The notes under the pieces: generated by a model | What the model was told of the DNA's origin: nothing | Seen by the model: only the letters and a program-made list of their open reading frames with translations | Databases searched by the model: none | Assembly: GCA_965198005.1 (NCBI GenBank) | Contig: CBDAOI010000004.1 | Span: 2,126,763-2,190,762, forward strand | DNA length: 64,000 nucleotides | Direction: 5' to 3' | DNA from: Spirochaetia bacterium | Lineage (GTDB): Bacteria > Spirochaetota > Spirochaetia > SZUA-6 > Bin103 | Shown here: positions 6,022-58,559 of the stretch, piece after piece | How the letters are laid out: each line of letters begins with the position of its first letter | Position numbering within the stretch: position 1 is the stretch's first letter | Made by a program: the position numbers and the translations under genes

Positions 6022-7437
6022 ATGTTCCGGGAGTACGACCTGCGCGGCCGCGTGTCCGACGCGGAGCTCAACCCCGATTCGGTGCGCGCCATCGCCAATG
6101 CATTCGGCCGACTGCTCGAACGCCGCGGCATCGACTCGGCGGTCGTGGGCCACGACCTCCGCCCGGCGTCGCCGGCCTTCAAGGACGCGGCGGTCGCCGG
6201 GTTGCGGGCGGCGGGCCGCCACGTGGTGGACGTCGGACTGACCATCAGTCCGGCCCTCTACTTCAGCCAGCACCATCTGCAGGTGCCCGGCGGCCTGATG
6301 GTCACCGCCAGTCACAATCCCAGCGAGTGGAGCGGGATGAAGCTCGCGCACGGCTATTCCCGGACCCTGGGCCCGGCCGAGATGCGGGAACTGCACGCGC
6401 TGGTACGCGCCGGAGAGCAGAGTGCCGGGGCCGGCCGGTATACCGTGACCGACACCCGTGCCCCCTACCTCGAGCGGGTCGCCGCCGGGACCCGGCTCGA
6501 GCGTCCCCTGCGGGTTGCCGTGGACTGCGGCAACGGCGGCGCCGGCGTGTTCGCGTACGAACTCCTGCAGCGCCTCGGCTGTCTGACCTTTCAACTCCAT
6601 TGCGACCCCGATGACAGCTATCCGCACTACTTTCCCAATCCGTCCGATCTGAAGGCGCGCCGGCGGCTCAGGCAGATCGTGACCCATCCCTACATCCGGG
6701 CCGACGTCGGGCTGGCGTTCGACGGCGACGGTGATCGCATCGGGGTGATCGACGAAGCCGGCGCCGACGTCTGGAGTGACCGGGTCCTTATTCTGCTGGC
6801 ACGCCGGCTGCTGGACGCGCAACCGGGCGCGGCCATCGTCTACGACGTCAAGTGTACGCGCGGCCTGGAGGAAGAGATCCGCGGTCGCGGCGGCACGCCG
6901 GTGATGTGCAAGACGGGACACTCGCACGTCAAGGCGAAGCTGCAGGAGATCGGCGCCGCGCTCGCCGGGGAGCGGAGCGGCCACATTTTTTTCCGCGCCG
7001 GCTACTACGGCTTCGACGACGCGCTGTACGCCGGCGTCCGCCTGCTGGAGGTGCTGGCGGCATCCGCGGGCTCCCTGTCGGAACTGGTGGCCACCACCCC
7101 CCGGTACGTGACGTCGCCCGAGATCGCCGCGCCCTGCCCGGACGACCGGAAGTACGGCGTGGTCGATGCGCTGGTGGCCGAATTCAAGCGCGAGTTCGGC
7201 GCCGCCGTGAACGACGTCAACGGCGCGCGCGTGGAGTTCGGCGACGGTTGGGGCCTGGTGCGCGCCTCCTCCAACCTGCCGGAGCTGGTGCTGATCTTCG
7301 AGGCCGGGAGTGAAGCGCGCGTGCGTGAAATCCACGCGCTGTTCCGCGCCCGCCTGGCCGCCTACCCCGAGATCGACCCGCACTGGCGCAATGATCCCTA
7401 CGTCGACGATCGGTCCATCGGCCGCGGCCGGCGCTGA
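6022..7437 (+). CDS. phosphomannomutase/phosphoglucomutase (alpha-D-phosphohexomutase)
   Basis: Active-site TASHNP, a metal-binding D.DGDR loop and a GE.SGH sugar-binding loop. Start placed at MFREYDLRG. In-frame alternative ATGs lie at 5926-5944 inside a tandem GAGACCGAT repeat that overlaps the SRAP stop. Confidence 0.85.
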   Translation: MFREYDLRGRVSDAELNPDSVRAIANAFGRLLERRGIDSAVVGHDLRPASPAFKDAAVAGLRAAGRHVVDVGLTISPALYFSQHHLQVPGGLMVTASHNPSEWSGMKLAHGYSRTLGPAEMRELHALVRAGEQSAGAGRYTVTDTRAPYLERVAAGTRLERPLRVAVDCGNGGAGVFAYELLQRLGCLTFQLHCDPDDSYPHYFPNPSDLKARRRLRQIVTHPYIRADVGLAFDGDGDRIGVIDEAGADVWSDRVLILLARRLLDAQPGAAIVYDVKCTRGLEEEIRGRGGTPVMCKTGHSHVKAKLQEIGAALAGERSGHIFFRAGYYGFDDALYAGVRLLEVLAASAGSLSELVATTPRYVTSPEIAAPCPDDRKYGVVDALVAEFKREFGAAVNDVNGARVEFGDGWGLVRASSNLPELVLIFEAGSEARVREIHALFRARLAAYPEIDPHWRNDPYVDDRSIGRGRR

Positions 7438-7590: not shown

Positions 7591-8265
7591 TCAGTCTTCG
7601 CTGGCCGGCGCGGCCAATCCATCCAGCAGCAACCCGGTGAACGCGTCCGCGAGTCGGTCGCCGGCAGCCAGCAGCGCCTGCATCTGGGTATCTCCCATCT
7701 GGGCGAGCAGGTCGATCCCGAGACTGATGGCGTACACCAGGCGGGCCACCACCGGCAGGTCCACCGGGCGGACCACCCCGGCCTCGACTCCGGCCTGCAG
7801 ACCGCGTTCCGCCTTGGCGACCCCCGGACGGATCAGGTGGCCATATACGTACTCCGTCAGCTCGGCGTCCGCCAGCACCGCGGACAGCAGCGCGGTCAAG
7901 GTTTGCCGCTGTGGCCGCCCGGTGCGGACCCGGGCACTGATCACGTGCCGATAGCGGCTGCGCAGGTCTTCGCCCGCGGCGCCCGGCGGCGCACCGGCAG
8001 CGCGAATCTCTTCGATCACCCGCTGCAGAACGCCCAGAAACAGATCGCGCTTGCTGTCGAAATGATGGTACAGCGCCCCTTCCGACAGTTTCGCGGCGGC
8101 CGCGATCGTCTTGGTCGTGGCCTGCTCGTAGCCGCGCTCGGTAAATACCCGCGTGGCTGCCCGAATGATGTGCTCGCGCCGACCTCTCCCGGCGCGCCGA
8201 CTTTCCGGTTTCGGTTCGGGCGCGGCCTGACGGCCCGTCTCCGATGGCTCTCGCTGCAACGCCAT
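7591..8265 (-). CDS. TetR/AcrR family transcriptional regulator
   Basis: N-terminal HTH with the signature I..AA..VF.ERGY..TT...IA.AA..S.GALYHHF. Start chosen at MALQREP (8265); the longer ORF start at 8403 is considered an over-extension. Confidence 0.8.
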   Translation of the reverse strand: MALQREPSETGRQAAPEPKPESRRAGRGRREHIIRAATRVFTERGYEQATTKTIAAAAKLSEGALYHHFDSKRDLFLGVLQRVIEEIRAAGAPPGAAGEDLRSRYRHVISARVRTGRPQRQTLTALLSAVLADAELTEYVYGHLIRPGVAKAERGLQAGVEAGVVRPVDLPVVARLVYAISLGIDLLAQMGDTQMQALLAAGDRLADAFTGLLLDGLAAPASED

Positions 8266-11153: not shown

Positions 11154-12497
11154 GTGGCCTCGACCTCGTCCGCCGCCGTGACCGCGGTGCCGCACGGCCC
11201 ACGCTCCGCCTCCGCCGGCGGCCATGACCTGAAGTTTCTGCTCCGGCTGGCCTGGAAAAACCTCAGCCGCCACCGCCGCCGCACCGTCATCACCGCCGGC
11301 GCCCTGGCGGTGAGCGTCGCCATGTTCATCTTCATGGACTCGATGCTGCGCGGCATCGACACCGAATCGCAGCGCAACCTGGTGTGGTACGAGACCGGCA
11401 CCGGCCGCATCGTCAGCTCGGATCAGTACCGCGACCTGCGGCGGCCCCGGCTGCGACACGAGATCGTCGACTACCGCCCGCTGAGCGCGTGGTTGAACGA
11501 GCGCGGCGTGGCCAACGCCCCGCGCATCACCTTCACCGGCGAGCTGTTCTTCGGCGAGGGCGCGCTGCCGGTGCGGCTGGTCGGTATCGATCCGGCCAGC
11601 GACCCGCAGGTGTTCCGGCTGCCCGAAGCCCTGCTGCCCGGCAGCGAGTTCCTTGCGGCCGGCGTCCCGGGACTGCTGCTGGGCGCCTGGATGGCCGAGG
11701 ATCTGGGGATCGCCGCCGGCGACTTCGTGGAGGTGCGTACCCGCACCCGCCACGGCGCGGTGCAGACGCTGGAGCTGGAAGTGGTGGGCATCCTGCTCAG
11801 CCCCAACCCGACCATCAACCGGGGTGTGGGGTTTCTGCCGCTCGACGTGGTCCAGTACGACCTCGACCTGGCGGGCGTTACCGAGGTGGTCCTCGGCGCG
11901 TTGCGCACGTCCATGGGACGCCGCATCGCGGTGCCGTCCGGCGCGGTCCTGAAGCGCGAGATCGAACGTCTGAACGCCGACCTGGCAGGTGCGATGCCCG
12001 GCGTCACCGCGGCCGGATGGCACCAACTGGCGCCCGATTACCTGGCCATAGTCGAGTCCAAGCAGTCGAGCAACGGGCTGCTGCTGTTCCTGATCTTCCT
12101 GATCGCGGCGGTGGGCATCTCCAACACCATGCTGATCGCGGTGTATGAACGGTTCCGCGAGTTCGGGATGATGCGCGCCCTGGGCATGGACGACGCCGCG
12201 GTCCGCGCCACCATGGTGTTCGAGGCCGGTGCGATCGGCCTGATCGGAGCGCTGGCGGGACTGGTGGTGGGCGCCGCCGCCACCTGGTGGCTGGTCAACT
12301 GGGGCCTCGACCTGAGCGGGCTGTACGGCAACGTCAACATCGGCTACCGGGTGACCGGCATCTTCCGCGGCGCCTGGAACCCGGGCATCATGCTCACCGC
12401 AGTGATCTTCGGGGTGGTCGCGAGCATGCTGATCGCCCTGCTGCCGGCGCGCCGGGCGCTCAAGCTCGACGTGGCGCAGTGCCTGCGCTACGAGTAG
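11154..12497 (+). CDS. ABC transporter permease, FtsX/MacB-type (LolC/E-like), copy 1
   Basis: N-terminal TM, a large periplasmic domain and a C-terminal FtsX 3-TM bundle. About 75% identical to the permease at 13850..15121. Confidence 0.85.
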   Translation: MASTSSAAVTAVPHGPRSASAGGHDLKFLLRLAWKNLSRHRRRTVITAGALAVSVAMFIFMDSMLRGIDTESQRNLVWYETGTGRIVSSDQYRDLRRPRLRHEIVDYRPLSAWLNERGVANAPRITFTGELFFGEGALPVRLVGIDPASDPQVFRLPEALLPGSEFLAAGVPGLLLGAWMAEDLGIAAGDFVEVRTRTRHGAVQTLELEVVGILLSPNPTINRGVGFLPLDVVQYDLDLAGVTEVVLGALRTSMGRRIAVPSGAVLKREIERLNADLAGAMPGVTAAGWHQLAPDYLAIVESKQSSNGLLLFLIFLIAAVGISNTMLIAVYERFREFGMMRALGMDDAAVRATMVFEAGAIGLIGALAGLVVGAAATWWLVNWGLDLSGLYGNVNIGYRVTGIFRGAWNPGIMLTAVIFGVVASMLIALLPARRALKLDVAQCLRYE

Positions 12498-12532
12498 CGG
12501 TGGCGCTACGAGTAGCGGTGGCGCTACGAGTG
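12484..12532 (+). repeat. 18-bp tandem repeat x2.7 (GCGCTACGAGTAGCGGTG) spanning the stop codon of permease copy 1
   Basis: Read directly. Each unit contains an in-frame stop (TAG, TAG, TGA) preceded by RYE codons. Confidence 0.75.
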
Positions 12533-43341: not shown

Positions 43342-43477
43342 GACCGCACCGTAGCGCGATTGCGTCCGACACGTCATGCGGGGTCATGCGCAGGTCATGC
43401 GCTATCCAGGCGGGCGCAATTGGGGCACTATCGGATAATGGCGGCTGACGCCGCGCACCCGGGACCCGTGCGCGTAC

Positions 43478-44818: not shown

Positions 44819-44843
44819 GGGGGTCTTGACCGGGTCTTGACCG
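44819..44843. promoter_or_regulatory. tandem GGGTCTTGACC x2 (each unit a GGTC..GACC palindrome) upstream of ferritin
   Basis: Read directly. It overlaps a TTGACC -35-like box. AAGGAG Shine-Dalgarno and the ferritin ATG lie about 45 nt downstream. Confidence 0.4.
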
Positions 44844-44888: not shown

Positions 44889-45401
44889 ATGATCTCTGAG
44901 AACATCACCCACGCCCTGAACGACCAGATCACCAACGAGCTGAATTCCAGCTACATCTACCTGGCGATGTCCGCACACTTCTCGGCGCTCAATCTCAACG
45001 GCTTCGCCCACTGGTTTCGCATCCAGTACGAAGAGGAGCGCGGCCATGCGCTACGGATCTATGATCACGTCCTGGACCGGGGGGGAACGGTGAACCTCGC
45101 GGCCCTGGCGCAACCCTCCCTGGAGTGGGACTCTCCGCTGTCGGCGTTTACCGAGGCGCGCGACGAAGAGCGCCGCATCGCCGGCAGCATCGATGAATTG
45201 ATCGAGCTGGCGGTGGCCGCGAAGGATCACGCGACGCGCATCCTGCTGGACTGGTTCGTGAGCGAGCAGGTCGAGGAGGAGCGGATCACCACCGAGATCG
45301 TCGACCAGTTGCAGATGGTCGGCGACTCCCGGATCGGACTGTTCATGATCGACGAGCGCCTCAAGAGCCGGGTCCCGGACGAGGAGCCGCCGGGCGGCTG
45401 A
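44889..45401 (+). CDS. ftn: ferritin (non-heme, Ftn-like)
   Basis: LN.QI..EL.SSY.YL.MS..F, EE..HA and a four-helix ferroxidase E/H ligand pattern. Confidence 0.85.
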   Translation: MISENITHALNDQITNELNSSYIYLAMSAHFSALNLNGFAHWFRIQYEEERGHALRIYDHVLDRGGTVNLAALAQPSLEWDSPLSAFTEARDEERRIAGSIDELIELAVAAKDHATRILLDWFVSEQVEEERITTEIVDQLQMVGDSRIGLFMIDERLKSRVPDEEPPGG

Positions 45402-46527
45402 CCGGCGCGCCGGTCAGCGCCACGGTGACCGGCTGGCCGGTGTGGAATCGCCTGCAGGCGGGTACGTGCACCGTGAGTTCGCGCACGGCCGGCAGGTCGT
45501 CGTCCGCCGCGCCGGCTGAATCGTCGACCCTGACCCGCAGTTCGCGGAACTCACCCATGAACCGTTGCGCCTGAATCACGCCGCGCAGCCCGGGCGGGAG
45601 ATGGCCGTTCGCCGAGTCCCCGCCGCTGTCCGTCGCGGCCGCGACCAGCAGTTGTGCGGGCCGCACGGATACCGCCGGCCCGCCGTTCAGCCGGAACGGC
45701 ACGGCATTGGCCAGCCGGCCCAGCGCGCACCGCCACGCCGCACCCACCCGCCGTACCGCGAGCAGATTCGCCGCCCCCAGGTATTCGGCCACGAACGCGT
45801 TGGCGGGCGCGGAGTACAGGCTCTCCGCATCGCCCACCTGCTCGATCCGACCGCGATGCAGCAGCGCGATCCGGTCGGCGACGGTGAACGCTTCGTCGCG
45901 ATCGTGGGTCACGAACACCGCCGTGGTCCGGGTGGCGCGCAGCACTTCGCGCACCTCGTGCAACAGGTGCCCCTTGAGCACCGGATCGAGATTGTTGAAC
46001 GGCTCATCGAACAGCAGCAGCGCCGGCTGCGGTGCCAACGCACGCCCGATCGCGGCCCGTTGCGCCTGACCGCCTGATACCTCGTGCGGATAGCGGTCGC
46101 GCAGGTCGGTGATGCGCATCAACCCGAGCGTGTGCTCGGCCCGCTGTCGCCGCCGCGGCTCGGGCAGGCGCCGCAGGCCGAAGCTGACGTTCTGAAGAAT
46201 CGTGAGGTGCGGCAGCAGCGCGGTCTCCTGAAACACCACTCCCACCGCCCGGTCCTCCGGGGGAACGGACACGCGCCCGCCGGCGACCAGGGTTCCGCCC
46301 AGATGGATGGTGCCGGCGCCGGGCTGATCGAACCCCGCCACCAGCCGCAACAGGGTGGTCTTGCCGCTGCCGCTCTCGCCCAGCAGGGCCAATACCGCCC
46401 CGCGCTCCAGTGCCAGGGAGACGCCGGCCAGAGCCGGACGCGGATTGCCGGCGTACCGCTTGCCGACACCGCTCAACTGCAAGTAGGCCGGTTCCTGTGT
46501 CCCGCGGCCGCGCCCGCCGGTGACCAT
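45361..46527 (-). CDS. ABC transporter ATP-binding protein, Fe3+/polyamine importer type (FbpC/PotA-like) with C-terminal TOBE-like domain
   Basis: Walker A GESGSGKTT, signature VSGGQAQRAAIGRAL, Walker B LLFDEPF. The 3' end overlaps the convergent ferritin gene by 41 nt. Confidence 0.85.
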   Translation of the reverse strand: MVTGGRGRGTQEPAYLQLSGVGKRYAGNPRPALAGVSLALERGAVLALLGESGSGKTTLLRLVAGFDQPGAGTIHLGGTLVAGGRVSVPPEDRAVGVVFQETALLPHLTILQNVSFGLRRLPEPRRRQRAEHTLGLMRITDLRDRYPHEVSGGQAQRAAIGRALAPQPALLLFDEPFNNLDPVLKGHLLHEVREVLRATRTTAVFVTHDRDEAFTVADRIALLHRGRIEQVGDAESLYSAPANAFVAEYLGAANLLAVRRVGAAWRCALGRLANAVPFRLNGGPAVSVRPAQLLVAAATDSGGDSANGHLPPGLRGVIQAQRFMGEFRELRVRVDDSAGAADDDLPAVRELTVHVPACRRFHTGQPVTVALTGAPVSRPAAPRPGPGS

Positions 46528-46540
46528 ACGCCGGCGCCGG

Positions 46541-48283
46541 TTACGCCGCGGCCGCCGGCTCGGCCGTTCCCAGCCGCACCAACGCGTGCTGCCGCCGCGT
46601 GGTGGCGAGCCGCTGCAGCACGATCACCGGCAGCACGCCGATCGCCACGATCAACAATGCCAGCACCGCGGACTCGGCCACCATCTCGTTGCTCGCCAGC
46701 CGGAATACCCGCGTCGCCAGGGTCTCCAGATTGAACGGGCGCAGGATCATGGTCAGCGGCAATTCCTTGAGCATGTCCACCACCAGCAGCACCGCGGCGC
46801 TGATCAGGGCCGGCCGCAGGTTGGGGATCCCCACCCGCAGCAGGGCTTGGCGCGGGCGCAGGCCGGACGCGCGCGCCACCTCGTCGAAACGGGTCGTCAC
46901 GCGGCAGAAGCCGGAGTCGATGGTGTGGTAGCCCACGGCAAAGAAGCGCACCACGTAGGCCGCCAACAGCGCGGCCACGCCGCCGGTGATGATCAGTCCC
47001 GGCGACATTCCGAACAGCCAGCGGGCAGCCGCGATCAGGCGGTGATCGACCCACGTATAGGCGGTCGCGATGCCGACGGCGAGCACCGCGGCCGGAATCG
47101 CGTAGCCGACCGTGGCGAGCCGCGCCATCGACGAAACCCAGGGCCCGGACCGCAGGCGCGCCGCGTACGCCACCGTTACCGCCAGGACGATGATCATCAG
47201 CGCGGCGCCGGCGGCCAGACCGACGCTGGCGCCCAGCGCAGCGAGCGTCTGCGGGCGCAACAACTGCCCGGGGGCCGCCGCCGCCCACCAGAAGAGCTGC
47301 GCGACCGGCACCGCGAATCCCAGCAGCACCGGGGCGGCGCACGCCAGCGTGGCGCCGGCGGCCGCCCGCCCGCGCAGCCGTTGGCGCAGCAACGGCCGTT
47401 CCACCAGGCCGGGGGCGTGGTACCGGGCCCGGCGCCGCTGCCAGCACTCGCCGAAAACGATCAGTCCCACCACCAGCAGCAGCACCGCGGACAGGGCCAG
47501 CGCGGCCTGCACGTTGCCCAGCGCAAACCAGGCGCGAAAGATGCCGATGGTGAGGGTGTCCACCCCGAAGTAGTGCGCGGCACCGAACTCGCCCAGCGTC
47601 TCCATCGCGACCAGCATCACGCCGGCGACGATGGCCGGCCGCGCCAGCGGCAGCACCGCCCCGAAGAAGGTGCCGGTGGCCGAGTAGCCCGCGCCGCGCG
47701 CCAGCTCCAGCAACGCCGCGCTCTGGCGCGCGAACACCGCGCGCGCGGTGAGGTACACGTACGGGTAGACGGTGAACGCGAGCACGCAGCTCAACCCGAC
47801 CGGATTCTGGATATCCACGGTCGGGTAGGTTCCCGGAGCCAGCTTCAGGGTGTTGCGCAGGAACAACTGAACCGGTCCGGTGAAGTCGACCAGCCCCACG
47901 TACGCGAACGCCGCGATGTAGGTGGGCAGCGCCAGCGGCAGCACCAGCAGCCAGCTCAGCGCCGCACGCCCCGGGAACTGGAACGCGGTCGTCAGCCACG
48001 CCGTCGCCACGCCGATCAGCCCGGCCAGCGCGGCTACCACCACCACCAGCGTCACCGTGTTGAACAGGTAGCGCAGCAGCACCGTCTGCGCCAAGTGGCG
48101 GACTTCCTCGCCGCCCAGGGCAGTCACGTGCGCCGCCACCACCAGCAGGGGAACGCCGATCAGCCCGGCCAGGAGCGCCGGGCCGAACAACCACACGCGT
48201 GAACTGGCCCGCTGCGGGACCAGGCGCCGGGCCACGGAGCGCACTGCCGCGACGCCCGACACGGCCGAAAACGTTCTAATCAT
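46541..48283 (-). CDS. iron(III) ABC transporter permease (FbpB-like, duplicated BPD domain)
   Basis: Two tandem six-TM domains, each with an EAA-like loop. Length 580 aa. Confidence 0.85.
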   Translation of the reverse strand: MIRTFSAVSGVAAVRSVARRLVPQRASSRVWLFGPALLAGLIGVPLLVVAAHVTALGGEEVRHLAQTVLLRYLFNTVTLVVVVAALAGLIGVATAWLTTAFQFPGRAALSWLLVLPLALPTYIAAFAYVGLVDFTGPVQLFLRNTLKLAPGTYPTVDIQNPVGLSCVLAFTVYPYVYLTARAVFARQSAALLELARGAGYSATGTFFGAVLPLARPAIVAGVMLVAMETLGEFGAAHYFGVDTLTIGIFRAWFALGNVQAALALSAVLLLVVGLIVFGECWQRRRARYHAPGLVERPLLRQRLRGRAAAGATLACAAPVLLGFAVPVAQLFWWAAAAPGQLLRPQTLAALGASVGLAAGAALMIIVLAVTVAYAARLRSGPWVSSMARLATVGYAIPAAVLAVGIATAYTWVDHRLIAAARWLFGMSPGLIITGGVAALLAAYVVRFFAVGYHTIDSGFCRVTTRFDEVARASGLRPRQALLRVGIPNLRPALISAAVLLVVDMLKELPLTMILRPFNLETLATRVFRLASNEMVAESAVLALLIVAIGVLPVIVLQRLATTRRQHALVRLGTAEPAAAA

Positions 48284-48419
48284 CCGAATTCATCCAAATT
48301 CATCCGAATCCTGGTGAATAGTCATGAAGATGGATTAACTATGTCAAGTCCAATGAATAAGTCGAACGGATATTTATCGAATTTATCGAATTTATCGGCT
48401 GTTGGTGGCTCTCCCGGCC
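48284..48419. promoter_or_regulatory. AT-rich promoter/operator region with two sets of short tandem repeats upstream of the iron ABC operon
   Basis: CATCCGAATTCATCCAAATTCATCCGAAT at 48283-48312 and ATTTATCGAATTTATCGAATTTATCGG at 48380-48406 (coordinates approximate). The minus strand reads GATAAATTCGATAAATTCGATAAAT, which resembles Fur-box hexamers. Confidence 0.45.
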
Positions 48420-50150
48420 TCAGTAGCTGGTCAATGGGCTGGTAACGTCCTTGAACGACACGCGGAACGAGGTGACCACGTCGATCACCGTCGTGACCGT
48501 TGCCGGTAGCGCCGTGGCCAGAGCTTCCGCCAACTGGTCCGGTGTTTCGACCCGGATCCCGTTGCACCCCATCGACCGGGCGATCGCGGCGAAGTCCATC
48601 GGGGCGAAGTCGCTCGCGATGACCCGTTCGCTCTGGCCGTGCTTGACCCAGCCGAGCGCGCTGTTGTTCAGCACCACCACGGTAATCGGGATATCCTCGT
48701 CGCGCGAGGTCAGCAGGCCGTTCATACCCATCCCGAAGCCGCCGTCTCCGGTAACTGCGACCACCTGCCGCCCAGGATGGACCAACTTGGCAGCCATTGC
48801 CGCGGGCAGCGAGTAGCCCATCGCGCCGATGCCCGGCATGATCAGCGACCCCGCGCTCTTGGTGCGGAAGAAGTGGGTCATGAACAACCGGTTCTCGCCC
48901 GCGTCGCAGGTAATGAAGGCATCGTCGGCGATCGCCCGGTGGATTTCGGCGAACACCCGCTGCGGCAGGATCGGAAGCTCGTCCGATTCGTATTCCGGAT
49001 CGGCAAACAACCCGTCGGCGCGGCGGGTTTCGTCCGCCGCCGCCTGGCGGGTGGCGCGCACTGCGGCGGACGGCGCGCCCGCCCGCGTCACCGCCTCGGC
49101 AAGCTGCGCCAGCACCAGCGCGGCGTCCCCGACCACGCCCTGATCGCAGGGGAACGACCAGCCCACGTTCTTGGGCTCGACGTCGACCTGAACCAGCGTC
49201 TGCCGGCTGGGATCGAGCAGCGCAGGGTTCTCATTGGCGGTGTCGGCGGGACCGAGCCGGGTGCCGACCGCAAGCACCAGATCCGCGTTGCCGATCACGG
49301 TGTTCGCCGCCGTCTGCCCGAAGTTGCCGAACACGCCCAGCGCCAGCGGATGGGTCTCGGGAAACACCCCCTTGCCGGAAGCGGTGGTGGCCACCGGCGC
49401 GGCGAGCAGCTCCGCCAGGGCGGCGAGCTCGGCATACGCCTGACTGACACGCACGCCGTTGCCGGCGATCACGACCGGCCGCTGGGCGGCCGCCAGCAAG
49501 GACGCCGCCGCCTCGACCTGTCCCGGGTCGGCCTGGGTCTTCGCCGGCAGATAGGCGGCGGTCGGATAGAGCGCCGGCCGACTGTCCGGGCCGACCGTGC
49601 CGCCCAGGGCCGCGCTGTGATAGATCACCCCGACCGGGCCGCGTTCCCCGCTCAGCGCGTGCTTGATGGCGAGCTGGGTGACGTGCACCGCCTCGACCGG
49701 GGTATAGGCGACGGCAGTGTGCTTGGTGACGCCGTCCAGCGCCTTTCTGGTGTCGAACGAGCCGTAATCGCCGGTGCCGCCCTGGTAGGGAGAGTGCTGC
49801 GTGAACGGCGCCTGATCGGAGAGATCCGTCAGCAGCAGCATGGGTGAGCTGCCCATGTGCGCCTCCAGGGTGCCCAGCAGAGCGTTGGCCAGAATGAAGG
49901 CCCCCTGCCCTATCGCGACGCCCGGCTTGCCGGTCAGGCGGCCGTACACCTCGGCCATGACGCTGGCCAGCTGCTCATGCCGCACCAGCACCGCACGAAT
50001 CGACGACCGGTGATCGTACAGCGCATCATAGATGCTCCCGGTGTTGCCCCCGATGATCCCGAATACCATATCGATGCCGGCGCCCTGCAGCGCGCGCACG
50101 ATCCCCTCGACCGAACGAACCTCTTCCTGTAACAGCTTCTGTGTTGCCAC
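48420..50150 (-). CDS. thiamine pyrophosphate-dependent enzyme (acetolactate synthase large-subunit-like)
   Basis: N-terminal TPP PYR domain, central domain, C-terminal PP domain with GDG-N-N motif (VTGDGGFGMG...NN). Confidence 0.85.
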   Translation of the reverse strand: MATQKLLQEEVRSVEGIVRALQGAGIDMVFGIIGGNTGSIYDALYDHRSSIRAVLVRHEQLASVMAEVYGRLTGKPGVAIGQGAFILANALLGTLEAHMGSSPMLLLTDLSDQAPFTQHSPYQGGTGDYGSFDTRKALDGVTKHTAVAYTPVEAVHVTQLAIKHALSGERGPVGVIYHSAALGGTVGPDSRPALYPTAAYLPAKTQADPGQVEAAASLLAAAQRPVVIAGNGVRVSQAYAELAALAELLAAPVATTASGKGVFPETHPLALGVFGNFGQTAANTVIGNADLVLAVGTRLGPADTANENPALLDPSRQTLVQVDVEPKNVGWSFPCDQGVVGDAALVLAQLAEAVTRAGAPSAAVRATRQAAADETRRADGLFADPEYESDELPILPQRVFAEIHRAIADDAFITCDAGENRLFMTHFFRTKSAGSLIMPGIGAMGYSLPAAMAAKLVHPGRQVVAVTGDGGFGMGMNGLLTSRDEDIPITVVVLNNSALGWVKHGQSERVIASDFAPMDFAAIARSMGCNGIRVETPDQLAEALATALPATVTTVIDVVTSFRVSFKDVTSPLTSY

Positions 50151-53795: not shown

Positions 53796-53860
53796 GCCGC
53801 AAGCGACGTTCCGCCGCCCCCGCGGAAGAAAGGGGGAGCGGAGCCGTCGGAGAGGTGTAC

Positions 53861-54082
53861 GTGAGCGCAGAGCTGATCGGAATAATTGCCGCGCCGATCG
53901 TCCTCGGTACCGCCATGCTCGCGTCGATACGCAGCGTCCGCCACGACGTGCGCGGCGTCCGCGACGAGCTACGAGGCGAGATTCACGGCCTCCGCAACGA
54001 AATGAACTCCTTCCTATCCCATTTGCGTCGTTATTCTCCGCGCCAGATGGTCGAAGTCTTCATGGCACTTCTGTCGAATTGA
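53861..54082 (+). CDS. small hypothetical membrane-anchored protein (questionable)
   Basis: GTG start after GGAGAGG. It overlaps the 3' end of the convergent DUF4276 gene by 69 nt, so it may be spurious. Confidence 0.2.
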   Translation: MSAELIGIIAAPIVLGTAMLASIRSVRHDVRGVRDELRGEIHGLRNEMNSFLSHLRRYSPRQMVEVFMALLSN

Positions 54083-54580
54083 GGCTACTCTCCGAGAGGC
54101 CTCCTCTCCCAACGGACCACGTCCACGGCCCGGATCATTGGCCACACCCCGTTCTCGAGCAAGCACGGCAAAGTATCGCTCCTTCACGGATACTTCACTG
54201 CGGACGTCGGACCACCTCCAGTCGCTAGGGAGATCAAGACCGGCGAGGACCCAGGTTTCCAACTCCTCCCACGCATTTTCGGCAAGGAACCGTCGGGGCA
54301 GGTTACCGAACTCTTTTTCGATTTGGTCGAGACGCCGGCGCCGCGAAGCAACACCGTCCCGGTCAACGCACAGGATGAACAGATCGGTCATCCCATCATA
54401 CTGTTCGACGATTTCCGCCACCCGTTCTGACTTCAACGCCTCATCAACGCCTCCAAGCAACGGATCCGTGCACACCGTGACGGTCGCCCGCACACTCAGA
54501 GATCGGAACAACCGCTGGAAAAGAGGCCTGAGAATATACTGATCATTCCGAAAGTCCTCAGGAATAATGAGGACGTTCAT
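54014..54580 (-). CDS. DUF4276/RloB-like TOPRIM-fold protein (AbiLii/AriB-like partner of the adjacent ATPase)
   Basis: N-terminal IIPED (TOPRIM Glu), LFILCVDRDGV (DxD) and the E.W..LA motif typical of the RloB/DUF4276 family. The start overlaps the ATPase stop (ATGA). Lower GC than the genome. Confidence 0.6.
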   Translation of the reverse strand: MNVLIIPEDFRNDQYILRPLFQRLFRSLSVRATVTVCTDPLLGGVDEALKSERVAEIVEQYDGMTDLFILCVDRDGVASRRRRLDQIEKEFGNLPRRFLAENAWEELETWVLAGLDLPSDWRWSDVRSEVSVKERYFAVLARERGVANDPGRGRGPLGEEASRRVASIRQKCHEDFDHLARRITTQMG

Positions 54581-55851
54581 CTAGAGTTTTCTCCATCCTT
54601 GCTCAGGTCGAACAGGACCGCGTTCTCCATCCAGCCGGACCGGTGGAGCCGTCCCAGTCCCTGCGACCGGCGTAACTTGACGGCGTTGGGTAACTTCGAG
54701 ACCGGAAGTACCACGGCATCGTCGGTATCCGGACGCCGGCACACAACGGACGTGTTCTCGAACGTGTCGGTGCCCACCAGTTCGATCAGGTCGGGTGAAT
54801 GGGTAGTGGTAACCACCTGGTACTCGCCGTTTGAAGTCTGGCCTTCGATCAGGTCGATCAGTAACTGCTGACGTGACGGATGAATCCCGTTATCGATCTC
54901 TTCGAACACGTAGAGGCCGGCCGGATTGGTCCCGAGCAGGGCCGCCAGCATCGCGAGAAAGCGCAGCGTCCCATCCGATGCGGAATAGGCGGACACCCTG
55001 TTGCCGTTCCGTTCGCAAAAGACGAGCTGGACGTGCCCGGTAGTCGGATCGGTCGGAAACTCGAAGTCGTGCACGTCCATCGGCGTCAGGGCTCGGGTCC
55101 ATTCCGCCAGTGTGATCTTGCGCCGTTCGTCCGTGCAAATCTCTTTCAGTACGGTAGACAGATTCCCACCGCTATCGCCCAGTACGGTCTGGCCTGGAAA
55201 CGCGGGTTGCCTCATACTGTTTGGCGACAAATCCAAGAAACGCATGTCGGCAAGGATCTTCATGACCCGCTCCGCCCATATCTTATGGAGCCTTACAACA
55301 CGTTTGTGTTCTCCAATCTGTGCCAGCGCCGGCTGGTCCGACCGCACCGCGATTCGGTGGCCGTATTTTTTCTGCTCTCCGGTCTTTGCCATGCGAAGCA
55401 GGAGATGGTTTTCGTGATCCTGATCGTGAACCGGATCGTACTTTCCGGGATGGCTCGTGTAAATCGGAGATCCGGCTAATTTCAGTTGTTCCGCGATTAC
55501 CTTGAATGATCCGGATTCTGCTCTGTCCATCCGAACCACGATCACGTAGGTCACCGTACTGCCATTCAGGGCAAGTCTCAACGACAGAGTGAATTGGGAG
55601 TGGCCGAAGCGCACCAGTTCCCTGGCCGTGCCTCGAATCTGCTCCCACTCAACGTGACCGCCGGCCCCGTACTTACCGCCAATGATGTCGGCCAGAGTGT
55701 ACCCTCGCCCAATGCCGTGCAGGAATCTGAACGCGTCACGGAGGTTGCTCTTGCCGCTCGCGTTGGCGCCCACGATCACGGTGAACGGGCCCATGCGTAC
55801 CGTTGCGTCGGGAAAGTTTTTGAAGTTGATCAGACGAAGCGCAGTGATCAT
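54577..55851 (-). CDS. AAA family ATPase (ABC/SMC-like, AAA_15/21; AbiLi/AriA/OLD-ATPase-like)
   Basis: MITALRLINFKNF start, Walker A GANASGKSN, Walker B/D-loop LYVFEEIDNGIHP, H-loop TTHSP. GC is about 55-58%. Start set at ATG 55851, not the TTG at 55917 used by the ORF caller. A TATAAT lies at 55900-55905. Confidence 0.8.
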   Translation of the reverse strand: MITALRLINFKNFPDATVRMGPFTVIVGANASGKSNLRDAFRFLHGIGRGYTLADIIGGKYGAGGHVEWEQIRGTARELVRFGHSQFTLSLRLALNGSTVTYVIVVRMDRAESGSFKVIAEQLKLAGSPIYTSHPGKYDPVHDQDHENHLLLRMAKTGEQKKYGHRIAVRSDQPALAQIGEHKRVVRLHKIWAERVMKILADMRFLDLSPNSMRQPAFPGQTVLGDSGGNLSTVLKEICTDERRKITLAEWTRALTPMDVHDFEFPTDPTTGHVQLVFCERNGNRVSAYSASDGTLRFLAMLAALLGTNPAGLYVFEEIDNGIHPSRQQLLIDLIEGQTSNGEYQVVTTTHSPDLIELVGTDTFENTSVVCRRPDTDDAVVLPVSKLPNAVKLRRSQGLGRLHRSGWMENAVLFDLSKDGENSR

Positions 55852-55957
55852 GGGCGTCGGTGCGGGTGCGTCGGCGGCATACCGGAAGTCATGGCGCAGA
55901 TTATACCGTAAGGCCAACCAACTAGTCTGGCAACGGCACCGTCGAGGTGGACGGGCG

Positions 55958-57613
55958 TCAGCCTTCGGCTTTCCCCAGCAGCTTCGCCTCTTCCTTCTTG
56001 ATCTCGTCCATCAGCACGACCAGGTCGAGGACGTCATGGCTCGCTACGGTACCCAGGAACGCACCCGATTTCCGGTCGGTGACCGGGATCACGCCCAGCG
56101 AGTTGGCCGCCATCCGTTCCAGCACGTCGACGATATACTCGTCCGGCCAGGCCCACGGCAGGTTCAGCCGGAGCGCGTCGCGCAACGGCGTGGCCGCCCA
56201 TGAATCGTGGGGAATGGCGCGCAGCCGGGCCAGGGATACGACTCCCGCCACCTCGCCCTCGCTGACCACCACGTAGTCCTGCTGATCGGGCATCAGCCAG
56301 TCGTCCATGAAGCCCTGCACCGACAGGGACGCCTCCGGATAGGGCCGCGTCCGGTCCAGCACGCTGCTGACCTTGACGCCGTCGAGGGCGTAGCGGGCGT
56401 AGGACGGCGTGACCACCGGCGCCGGCACGGCTCGATCCGCCGTCCTGGCGCGCTTGACCGTGAAGTCGATCACAGGCGGCATCAACAGGATGTAGCCGAA
56501 CATGATCAGCACGAACAGAGAGAACACGTCCTGCGCAATCACGCCGCTCTCGAGCAGGACCAGCAGCAAGGCGATCTCGGCCACGCCCTTCGACATCAGC
56601 CCCGTTGCCAGCGTGAACGGCGCGTCCAGACGGGTCAGGTAGGTGCTCAGGAATGCGCCGACGAACTTTCCCGCCAGGGGGATCAGCACCAGCGCGACAA
56701 TCGTCGCGGCCGGAATGGAGGTGAACGACAGATCGAACTGCAGGCCCGCCGAGGCGAAGAACAGTGGCACGAACAGGCCCTCGGACGCGCTGCGCATGCC
56801 CGGGATGATGTCCCGCCGCACCCGCTGCGGCATGCCCGACAGGGCGATACCGAACAGCAGGGCGCCGATCGTGCCGTGCAGGCCGATCTTTTCGGCCCCT
56901 ACCACCACCAGAAACAGGCCGCCGATCAGCAGCCCGAACGAGAGTTCCGGCACGTTCAGCAGGCGCTGCAGGAACAGGATCACCGGCGGCAGCACCCGCG
57001 TCGACAGAATCCACATCACGATCACGAAGCCCGCGATCTGCAGCAACAGCACCGGCACGCCGATCAGGCTGAAGTCGTGATGCTCGCCGATGGTGAACCC
57101 CACCACCAGCAGCGCGGTCACCTCCGCAATGATCACGACCGTGAAGATCTTGAGCCCGATCGGCTCCTTGAGATGGCCGCCGTCGGCCAGCACCTTGGCC
57201 ACCAGACCGAGGCTGGACAGCGACAGGATGCCCGCCAGCGCCAACGCCTCCGTGAAGCCGAGGCCGAGCGCGAACTCAAGGCCCAGGGGATCCGAAGTCA
57301 CGATCATGGCGGTCAGCAGCGAGATGACCACCGACACGACGGCGGCCACGAAGTAGCGGCCGCGGATGGTGGCCATGAAGCCCGGCAGGTCGATCTCGTC
57401 AAGACCGATCAGAAAGAACAGCACGAAGATGCCGATGCCGAGAAACAACTGGATCTCGGTAGTCGGCTCGACGATGCCGAGGACCGGGCCGAGCACGACT
57501 CCGGTCACCGTATAGGCCAGGATCGAGCTGAGACCGAACCGGCTCAGCACTCCCTCGACCAGCTTGGCGACGACTATCAGCAGGCCGAGCGGAAGCAGGA
57601 CTTCCAGTAACAT
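55958..57613 (-). CDS. cation:proton antiporter (CPA family Na+/H+ exchanger) with C-terminal CBS domain pair
   Basis: About 11 TM helices of the Na_H_exchanger type, then tandem CBS domains with a terminal KKEEAKLL. Confidence 0.8.
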   Translation of the reverse strand: MLLEVLLPLGLLIVVAKLVEGVLSRFGLSSILAYTVTGVVLGPVLGIVEPTTEIQLFLGIGIFVLFFLIGLDEIDLPGFMATIRGRYFVAAVVSVVISLLTAMIVTSDPLGLEFALGLGFTEALALAGILSLSSLGLVAKVLADGGHLKEPIGLKIFTVVIIAEVTALLVVGFTIGEHHDFSLIGVPVLLLQIAGFVIVMWILSTRVLPPVILFLQRLLNVPELSFGLLIGGLFLVVVGAEKIGLHGTIGALLFGIALSGMPQRVRRDIIPGMRSASEGLFVPLFFASAGLQFDLSFTSIPAATIVALVLIPLAGKFVGAFLSTYLTRLDAPFTLATGLMSKGVAEIALLLVLLESGVIAQDVFSLFVLIMFGYILLMPPVIDFTVKRARTADRAVPAPVVTPSYARYALDGVKVSSVLDRTRPYPEASLSVQGFMDDWLMPDQQDYVVVSEGEVAGVVSLARLRAIPHDSWAATPLRDALRLNLPWAWPDEYIVDVLERMAANSLGVIPVTDRKSGAFLGTVASHDVLDLVVLMDEIKKEEAKLLGKAEG

Positions 57614-57647
57614 CGCGCCTTCACCATAGGATAAAGTGGACGGCGGG

Positions 57648-58559
57648 TCATGCAAAAGGACCCGGCGGCTCGAAGTCGGGCGGGAGCGGTGCCTCGAAGG
57701 TGGATGCGGTTGCCGCTGCGGGCAGCGTGACCGTCAGACGGCGGGCGTGCAGCAGCAGGCGCGGCGCCGTGCCGCGGGCGCGTCCCGCGTACAGCGGGTC
57801 GCCCAGGATCGGGTGGCCGAGCCAGCGCACGTGCACCCGGAGCTGGTGGGTGCGCCCGGTGACCGGGCGCAACGCGACCAGCGCCGCATCCGCCCGCCGC
57901 GCCAGCACGCGGTAGCGGGTAACGGCCGCCTTGCCCCGCGAGTCGGACACCCGGAAGCGCAGCGGATCACGCGGGTCGCGCTGCAGCCGGGTCGCAATCC
58001 GGCCGGTCGCCGGCAGCGGGTGGCCGGCGACCCACGCATGGTAGATCTTCCGTACCCGCCGCGCGCTGAACTGGGCTGCCAGGCACGCATGGGCGGCCGC
58101 GTGCCGGGCCACGATGATCACGCCGGAGGTGTCCTTGTCCAGTCGATGCACGATCCCGGGGCGCAGCGAGTCGGGAAACCGGTCGGCCAGCTCCGGATAC
58201 CGATACAGCAGGGCATTGACCAGAGTACCGCCGCGATTGCCGTCGCCCGGATGCACGACCATGCCGCTCGGCTTGTCCACGACCACGACGTTGCGGTCTT
58301 CGAACAGGATTCGCAGCGGGATCGGCGCCGGCTCGGCGTGACGCGGGCGCGGCGGCGTCAGCACCGCCTCCACCCGATCTCCGTTGCCCAACCGAGCACT
58401 CGGTTTTGCAGCGTGCCCGTTCACCCGCAAACCCGCGAGCCGCTGCCTCAGTTGACTGCGTGAAGCGATGTTCACCCGGTCACTCAGAAACCGGTCGGCG
58501 CGCAGTCCCGCACCGCCTTCATCCACGACCAACGAAATCTCGACCGGGGCGGAGTCCAT
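57648..58559 (-). CDS. RluA family pseudouridine synthase (RluD-like, S4 domain)
   Basis: Catalytic [14 protein letters not shown] motif and an N-terminal S4 RNA-binding region. Confidence 0.85.

Follow-up and report, generated by a model that had tools for sequence, protein, structure and literature searches.

The operon described here comes closest to importers of the FutABC/FbpABC type (Hit, Sfu, Afu), with which it shares a fused two-domain permease and a PotA/CysA-type ATPase; it differs from them, however, in that neither it nor its counterparts in the clades at 70-82% amino acid identity carry a binding-protein gene. The fut genes are dispersed in Synechocystis too, and an unlinked binding protein is thus not unprecedented.

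The promoter of the operon invites comparison with the Fur box. Fur binds arrays of GATAAT hexamers, and Fur-type hexamers are arranged with a 6-bp repeat period or as a dyad. Certain Fur homologues recognise direct repeats outside this canon: BosR of Borrelia binds TAAATTAAAT, in which the pentamers are contiguous with a 5-bp period, and the Fur protein of B. japonicum binds three TGCATC repeats (PMC3037356).

The locus lies in a 64-kb stretch of DNA, which we analysed as a whole and call the window. Like a Fur-controlled promoter, it has GAT..AAT units, AT-rich and reiterated, in the promoter of an iron-type uptake operon, and a dyad that also overlaps the -10 element and the predicted transcription start. 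Unlike Fur hexamers, however, the units are heptamers with an extra base, they form direct repeats every 9-10 bp whose match to the consensus is at chance, and their arrays flank the core promoter without overlapping it and are absent in a sister species. BosR, a spirochaetal Fur-family protein acting on direct TAAAT repeats, is a literature lead only: the lineage is labelled Spirochaetia and the units contain TAAAT, but here TAAAT recurs every 9 bp, and BosR activates rpoS and has no known control of an iron importer. The locus also recalls contingency loci, as short tandem repeats stand among promoter elements and across a start codon, where a change of copy number would alter spacing and reading frames; on the other hand, three copies of 9-10 bp units are far from typical hypermutable tracts, the copy numbers are the same in three consensus assemblies from different samples, and the last ATG stays in frame at any copy number.

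Genomic Setting of the Spacer

The spacer occupies positions 48284-48419 (136 bp), between the stop codon of a gene for a TPP-dependent enzyme, which lies upstream of the island (48420-50150; Pfam; syntenic in the sister species), and the ATG of a permease gene, both on the minus strand. Its GC content is 41%, against 68% for the whole window, and sliding 100-nt windows across it drop to 36-44%, which makes it the AT-richest island of the 64 kb. An AT-rich spacer ahead of a permease and ATPase operon was what a first-pass annotation of the sequence had described, and this description holds. A terminator scan predicted no terminator between the TPP-enzyme gene and the island, so that the operon might be transcribed by read-through from upstream.

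The operon encodes a fused, FutB-like permease of 580 aa with two BPD_transp_1 domains (46541-48283, minus strand; Pfam) and a FutC-like ABC ATPase of 388 aa (45361-46527, minus strand; Pfam ABC_tran, NCBIfam). Judged by its domains, this pair of two-domain permease and ABC ATPase is that of a FutABC/FbpABC importer. Homologues of the permease are named iron(III) transport system or iron ABC transporter permease by public sources, and none of the curated NCBIfam equivalog cut-offs was reached. At the other end of the operon, a ferritin gene (44889-45401, plus strand; Pfam Ferritin, 5e-39) faces the ATPase gene and converges on it, as had been annotated, the two ends overlapping by 41 bp. The annotated absence of a substrate-binding protein gene was likewise reproduced: a tblastn search with the FutA-like protein of a related locus (L002) as query gave no match anywhere in the 64-kb window or in the related locus L001, and neither the window nor any operon of the 70-82% clades yielded a cognate FbpA/FutA-type binding protein. 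The cognate binding protein may be encoded elsewhere in the genome. The permease N-terminus, MIRTF, was considered as a relic of the start of a deleted binding protein (MRRTF...), and this was rejected because it aligns with the permease N-termini of other clades and the sister protein reads MNRSL.

Relatives of the permease come from MAGs that carry the label Spirochaetia or Spirochaetaceae and have genomes of 4-8 Mb with about 70% GC; they fall into three clades. Close relatives were gathered by exact-protein look-ups; a scan of JGI metagenomes returned distant relatives only, at 40% identity or less. In the clade at 56-58% amino acid identity (L002-L011, L030), the operon consists of binding protein, permease and ATPase, and is divergent from a PNPOx/DUF2470 (HugZ-like) gene. 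The binding protein of this clade matches the solved structures of FutA1, FutA2 and FbpA at E=3e-106 to 1e-63, the best match being PDB 2pt1 (E=3e-106), with FutA1 and FutA2 at 3e-106 and 1e-94. The iron assignment is anchored in these operons because they carry a FutA-like Fe-binding protein; together with the HugZ/DUF2470-like neighbour, this protein bears out the earlier designation of the operon as an iron-type importer. In the clade at about 70% (L001, L026, L028, L029) the binding-protein gene is absent and ferritin usually adjoins the ATPase gene. It is absent, with ferritin adjoining, also in the sister species at 82% amino acid identity (L022, L023, L025, L027, L032, L033), in which the gene order matches that of the window throughout: TPP enzyme, spacer, permease, ATPase, ferritin and MFS gene. 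The ferritin adjacency is kept in five of the six species-level loci checked (L023, L025, L026, L027, L029).

The Promoter Core and Its Dyad

Read on the coding strand, the stop codon TGA of the TPP-enzyme gene is followed by 23 nt of GC-rich sequence and by GATAAATTC GATAAATTC GATAAAT; 24 nt with an inverted ATTCAT then lead to the -35 hexamer TTGACA, which is separated by a 17-nt spacer containing GTTAATC from a candidate -10, TGACTA. Beyond it come ATTCAC-CAGGATTCGG-ATGAAT and the array GGATGAATTT GGATGAATTC GGATGATTAG. All of these elements are on the minus strand. The -35 hexamer (48342-48347), as read from the sequence, is a perfect match to the consensus. It stands in mid-island and had gone unnoticed in the first-pass annotation. 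The inverted hexamer ATTCAT lies 11 nt before it (48353-48358) and reads ATTTAT in the sister species, as seen from the sequence and its alignment, while the GTTAATC motif inside the promoter spacer (48333-48339) emerged from comparison with relatives. The candidate -10 (48319-48324) is weak, at a spacing of 17 nt; a consensus promoter scan of this region of the window called no promoter, and we infer the -10 from position and conservation because the scan did not call it.

We compared 18 orthologous loci, from the clades at 56-58%, about 70%, 82% and 100% amino acid identity. TTGAC[AG] stands at the homologous place in 18 of 18, and all 18 promoters have in common, after this hexamer, a TAAT-containing motif 3-4 nt on, CTTNN and a -10-like hexamer at 17 nt. 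GTTAATC is unchanged in the sister species, and is represented by TTAATC in the 70% clade and by TAATTC in most of the 56-58% clade. The homologues of the -10 read TGAATA, TAAATA, GATACA, TATACA and TTCACT, some of them (TAAATA, TATACA) better than the TGACTA of the window. In the 56-58% clade, most loci have a GATTAAT box at a distance of exactly 31 nt upstream of the -35, which is the register of the third GATAAAT of the window; this match may be a coincidence, because the sister species is without the box.

A core of 61 nt, with the ATTCAT ahead of the -35 at one end and CGGATGAAT at the other, can be aligned gap-free with the sister species; its identity there is 79-85%, against 66-69% for third codon positions in the adjacent permease gene. 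The core is under constraint, since its identity exceeds that of the third codon positions, and by this comparison it is a conserved cis-regulatory element; the tandem arrays are excluded from it. Upstream of the core the sequence cannot be aligned to the sister species, the position of the 9-bp array included. An Rfam scan of 48100-48600 with E up to 10 gave chance hits only (E of at least 0.76), none of them in the spacer.

At its downstream end the core holds the dyad ATTCAC-CAGGATTCGG-ATGAAT (48298-48319, minus strand), a candidate operator identified by pattern search and comparison with the sister species, which reaches from the -10 and the predicted transcription start to the first ATG. 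The counterpart of this dyad in the sister species is ATTCATCCG/CGGATGAAT, an inverted repeat with two 9-nt arms that match perfectly and stand 4 nt apart; the left arm begins at the final base of the -10, and the right arm includes the start codon. L023 and close variants have ATTTATCCG in place of this sequence. The window retains ATTCAC-N10-ATGAAT at the spacing of the sister. In 413 kb of window and related loci, ATTCAY-N10-RTGAAT with up to one mismatch occurs solely at the orthologous site, and at spacings of 6-14 nt the dyad likewise has no occurrence beyond it.

RTRAAT hexamers are clustered around the dyad: there are 7 in 180 nt of the window against 0.6 expected, and 4-5 in the sister species against 0.2-0.4 expected, in counts of a motif that was defined after inspection of the data and in sequences that are related, not independent. 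Three of their positions (-11, +28 and +44, counted from the -35) are common to window and sister. In the window as a whole, 7 of the 28 RTRAAT hexamers fall in this one 150-nt stretch, and a density scan found no second cluster of GATRAAT or RTRAAT in the 64 kb. From its position and its retention in both species, we consider the dyad to be probably the operator.

Two Arrays of One Repeat

The upstream array consists of 2.9 copies of GATAAATTC (48372-48397, minus strand; TRF period 9, 100% matches), with GATAAAT heptamers at 48396-48390, 48387-48381 and 48378-48372, and its ATAAAT hexamers begin 48, 39 and 30 nt before the -35 hexamer. The downstream array, GGATGAATTT, GGATGAATTC, GGATGATTAG (48280-48309, minus strand), has a TRF period of 10, 3.0 copies and 90% matches. 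Both arrays are beyond chance: their 16-mers occurred zero times in 100 dinucleotide shuffles, and tandem runs with at least 15 matched positions number three in the real window and none in locally shuffled windows. The coding-strand sequence given earlier, GATAAATTCGATAAATTCGATAAAT, was found as stated. The accompanying description of two repeat families was right as to the reality of both arrays, which TRF recovers; it has to be amended in that CGAATTCATCCAAATT and CGAATTTATCGAATTT form one repeat family with 81% identity. Their units can be written CG(G)AT[G/A]AATT, which yields six copies of the single motif GAT[A/G]AAT in the same sense, three ahead of the -35 and another three beyond the -10. 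The duplicated units appear to carry the half-site of the conserved dyad, because both share the clustered RTRAAT and GAT[A/G]AAT hexamers. Nor does the 10-bp array lie wholly inside the spacer, where it had been placed, as it extends into the start codon (48283-48281). With up to three mismatches allowed, the only copies of the repeats in the window are the arrays themselves.

Identical 3+3 copies are present in three independent assemblies of the species from different samples (window, L018, L024), whose sole difference is one T/C SNP within the 10-bp array. The arrays are not an assembly artefact, since three independent assemblies agree on copy number. As to function, equal copy number in three assemblies is neutral, speaking neither for nor against it. 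In the sister species, the upstream array is missing from the alignment of L023, L025, L027, L032 and L033, and the downstream array corresponds to a gap of 20 columns in all sister sequences, i.e. to a 20-bp insertion in the window. Both arrays arose after the split from the sister species, because neither exists there. Plasmid-type replication iterons were also considered and are out, given the chromosomal context, the synteny across species and the lack of a Rep gene.

Short repeats are found in other spacers as well. The sister spacer has its own, unrelated ones (TTGCTGCA x2, GGTYACGCC x2 and GCCTGACA x2-3), 11-bp repeats occur in two other spacers of the window (43373-43402 and 44821-44843), and an approximate count puts 5 of the 21 perfect short tandem repeats in the non-coding part that makes up about 10% of the window. 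Since other spacers and the sister spacer carry such repeats, the duplication may be simple mutational noise in these genomes.

The downstream array triplicates the start-codon segment and creates three ATGs in three frames, of which only ATG#3 (48283) is in the frame of the permease. Sequence comparison indicates that ATG#3 is the real permease start: the first codons differ synonymously from those of the sister protein (e.g., Arg3 AGA/CGC, Ser6 TCG/TCC, Val8 GTG/GTA), which supports this start, and the public gene call begins the permease at ATG#3 too. A Shine-Dalgarno-like AGGA (48309-48312, minus strand) is read 5 nt before ATG#1 (48303), which opens a putative uORF1, ATG AAT TTG GAT GAA TTC GGA TGA (MNLDEFG*; 48280-48303, minus strand), whose stop overlaps the permease start as ATGA; the T/C SNP in L018 turns its Leu into Ser. 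From ATG#2 (48293) a second reading frame, uORF2, would run out of the permease frame (ATG AAT TCG GAT GAT TAG, MNSDD*; 48276-48293, minus strand). The predicted RNA structure of the window leader is non-significant (z = -0.2 and -0.7).

Comparison with Fur Boxes and Related Operators

The repeats had been described as Fur-box-like, and this likeness did not survive comparison with the consensus sequences quoted in PMC3037356. The best match to the 19-bp Fur consensus, GATAATGATAATCATTATC, is 12/19, a value reached by 17-23% of shuffles, and the best match to the 7-1-7 form, TGATAATnATTATCA, is 8/14 (p>0.9). A scan of the window with Fur/DtxR-type and other metalloregulator motifs remained at chance level throughout, for the Fur 19-mer and 7-1-7 forms, PerR, two forms of Zur and IdeR as well as for an MntR-like form, the Irr ICE and the RirA IRO; the Fur, PerR and Zur 7-1-7 forms and the IdeR consensus did not rise above chance in any of the 18 orthologous promoters. 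The geometry is also wrong. All six units are in direct orientation with periods of 9 and 10 bp, and are neither 6-bp hexamers nor a unit dyad, and the sole dyad, ATTCAY-N10-RTGAAT, differs in geometry from a Fur-type dyad. By consensus and by geometry, these repeats are not a canonical Fur box.

No tblastn match to E. coli Fur, B. subtilis PerR or M. tuberculosis IdeR was obtained in the window and 413 kb of related loci, a search over a small fraction of a 6-7 Mb genome. A similar motif was likewise missing upstream of other iron genes in the 64-kb window and 413 kb of related loci, which hold few such genes, and the motif is absent upstream of the ferritin and MFS genes. The proposal of an iron-responsive operator is therefore left standing in part: a conserved promoter of an iron-type importer and clustered half-site-like units are in its favour, but the arrays on which it had been based are absent from the sister species.

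Discussion

We propose that the spacer serves a FutBC-type importer as promoter, operator and leader, and that the arrays are recent duplications of an operator half-site, a reading to which we give about even chances. The 61-nt core would be its inherited and constrained part, with the -35, GTTAATC, the weak -10 and the inverted hexamers ATTCAY-N10-RTGAAT. This inverted pair would lie over the predicted transcription start and the ribosome-binding and start-codon segment, so that a repressor bound there would block RNA polymerase. The arrays would be young, species-specific slipped-strand duplications of one unit containing the half-site GAT[A/G]AAT, and not ancient iterons: the upstream one would add three copies 30-56 nt ahead of the -35, while the downstream insertion of 20 bp would triplicate the right half-site and the start codon, shifting the true start by 20 nt. 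ATG#1, with the best Shine-Dalgarno, would open a 7-codon uORF, and because the stop of uORF1 overlaps the true start, the permease is probably translated by termination-reinitiation. The likely net effect would be more sites, on both sides of the polymerase site, for one putative and probably metal-responsive regulator, and a damped translation. The more specific claim that an undescribed metal regulator reads GAT[A/G]AAT and that the futBC operator evolves by half-site duplication, with six copies allowing possible cooperativity or looping and with a uORF-coupled start, we consider decidedly unlikely.

The arrays could also have come from neutral replication slippage in an AT-rich spacer and have no regulatory role, so that the conserved core alone matters. 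The arrays are perfect or near perfect, hence young, and also species-specific, in keeping with slippage, as are the different short repeats of the sister spacer, the 11-bp repeats of other window spacers and the share of short repeats (5/21) in the roughly 10% of non-coding sequence. Pure neutrality would, however, make it a coincidence that the heptamer duplicated in both arrays also forms the conserved dyad; in three assemblies of separate samples the arrangement is fixed, and an insertion that places two out-of-frame ATGs before the start is unlikely to spare translation. We hold neutral slippage to be less likely than not. An iron-loaded Fur-family repressor that binds the GATAAAT and GGATGAAT repeats and shuts the importer off would suit an iron-type operon, and GAT[A/G]AAT is GATAAT with one extra base; moreover, the precedents for non-canonical direct repeats among Fur homologues (PMC3037356) gain in interest from the TAAAT within the units and from relatives labelled Spirochaetia. 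Such a repressor is nevertheless unlikely, given a best match of 12/19 that 17-23% of shuffles attain, 7-1-7 forms at chance in 18 of 18 promoters, a period of 9-10 bp and not 6 or 5, a sister species that keeps the promoter without the arrays, and neither a fur gene nor a second site in the window and 413 kb of related loci.

Control could also act on the RNA, with a hairpin hiding the start codon in the sister species and the window having swapped this hairpin for uORF-coupled translation. Sister leaders do fold into a 9-bp hairpin that includes the AUG (-9.4 and -11.6 kcal/mol; z -3.1 and -2.1), L023 retains the pairing through G-U wobble, and the end of uORF1 overlaps the true start as ATGA. 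Yet the beginning of the left arm falls within the -10 hexamer, and most of the arm precedes the predicted transcription start. RNA initiated at this promoter would be short of that part, so the hairpin would form only in read-through RNA; with a window leader devoid of significant structure (z -0.2, -0.7) and no Rfam match, this kind of control seems very improbable. The least credible of the readings, to our mind, is one in which AAATT/GAATT tracts every 9-10 bp bend the DNA, as a UP-like element, a curved element or a nucleoid-protein site that offsets the weak -10. AnTn tracts near the helical periodicity do lie on both sides of the promoter, the upstream array, 30-56 nt ahead of the -35, occupies a position from which UP elements and class I activators work, and the -10 is poor; but a 9-bp period is out of helical phase, and the sister species has a similar -10 and manages without arrays.

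The label "Fur box" is tempting for these repeats and is unsupported; it is corrected here. In other respects the spacer is an ordinary promoter region, and it leaves the understanding of iron uptake and gene regulation unchanged. If the half-site reading is true, it would provide a candidate operator for metal regulation (ATTCAY-N10-RTGAAT, half-site GATRAAT) in a soil lineage without cultured members. The locus would then be a natural experiment, in which two sister species have one promoter core, with or without duplicated half-sites and a triplicated start codon. One motif behind both arrays and the triplication of the start codon make the case a neat one, and the contrast with the sister would ease functional tests. 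And if an undescribed regulator does read these sites, the spacer would be a clean natural case of an operator and a leader remodelled by slippage.

Organization of the permease-ATPase operon and its junction with ferritin

The permease and ATPase genes form an operon without a substrate-binding protein gene (permease at 46541-48283 of the window), and this arrangement is kept across the clades at 70-100% amino acid identity (L001 and L022-L029), where a ferritin gene usually adjoins it. In the clade at 56-58% identity a FutA-like binding protein is retained, together with a divergent HugZ/DUF2470-like gene. The convergent ATPase and ferritin genes overlap by exactly 41 bp in the window (45361-45401), and the same overlap of exactly 41 bp is found in L026, a species of the 70% clade (6901-6941); there is no overlap between the two genes in L023, from the sister species, or in L029, from the 70% clade.

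A conserved leader in the 70% clade

Located 3' of the promoter in the members of the 70% clade is a common, conserved leader, CATTACGCTTGCGAATGTAGGTGAAT, some 45 nt long (L001 5715-5760, L026 3900-3945, L028 3755-3800 and L029 3925-3965). It carries a Shine-Dalgarno-like AGGTGA, and no start codon is conserved in it among these four loci. In L026 and L029, the uORF ends overlap the annotated start.

Short tandem repeats and a lower-GC stretch elsewhere in the window

Upstream of ferritin, GGGTCTTGACC is repeated 2.1 times (44821-44843), which amounts to a tandemly duplicated -35-like TTGACC box, and the MFS-ferritin spacer of the sister species holds three copies of GGCCAGGTT (L023, around 7630-7660). 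One more promoter-near short tandem repeat, GTCATGCGCAG in 2.8 copies, was observed at 43373-43402, in the spacer that separates the MFS transporter gene from a divergently oriented acetyltransferase-like gene. The longest perfect short tandem repeat of the window, an 18-bp unit in 2.6 copies (GCGCTACGAGTAGCGGTG), lies at a gene junction (12485-12531). A lower-GC stretch at approximately 53800-57700 (L018 1485-4244) looks defence-like, judging from its two ATPase genes of the AAA_15/AAA_21 type and one gene that is HSDR_N-like; adjoining it is a gene for a 1155-aa UvrD-type helicase, the N-terminal part of which matches TIGR00375/MJ0043_C.

Repeats in the TPP-permease spacer

Within this spacer the assemblies of the species differ at a single position, a T/C SNP that falls in the 10-bp array (window 48294 versus position 9987 of L018, another assembly of the species), by which units 1 and 2 of the array become identical in L018 and codon 3 of uORF1, the ORF from the first ATG, changes from Leu to Ser. 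The corresponding spacer of the sister species (L023 3875-3937, L025 1811-1875, L027 2361-2462) has short repeats of its own, namely two copies each of GGTYACGCC and TTGCTGCA, ATTGCTGCAGCC-type units spaced by about 18 bp, and two copies of GCCTGACA followed by the -35 element GCTTGACA. Since these repeats are the sister species' own, different duplications build up in each lineage within the same spacer.
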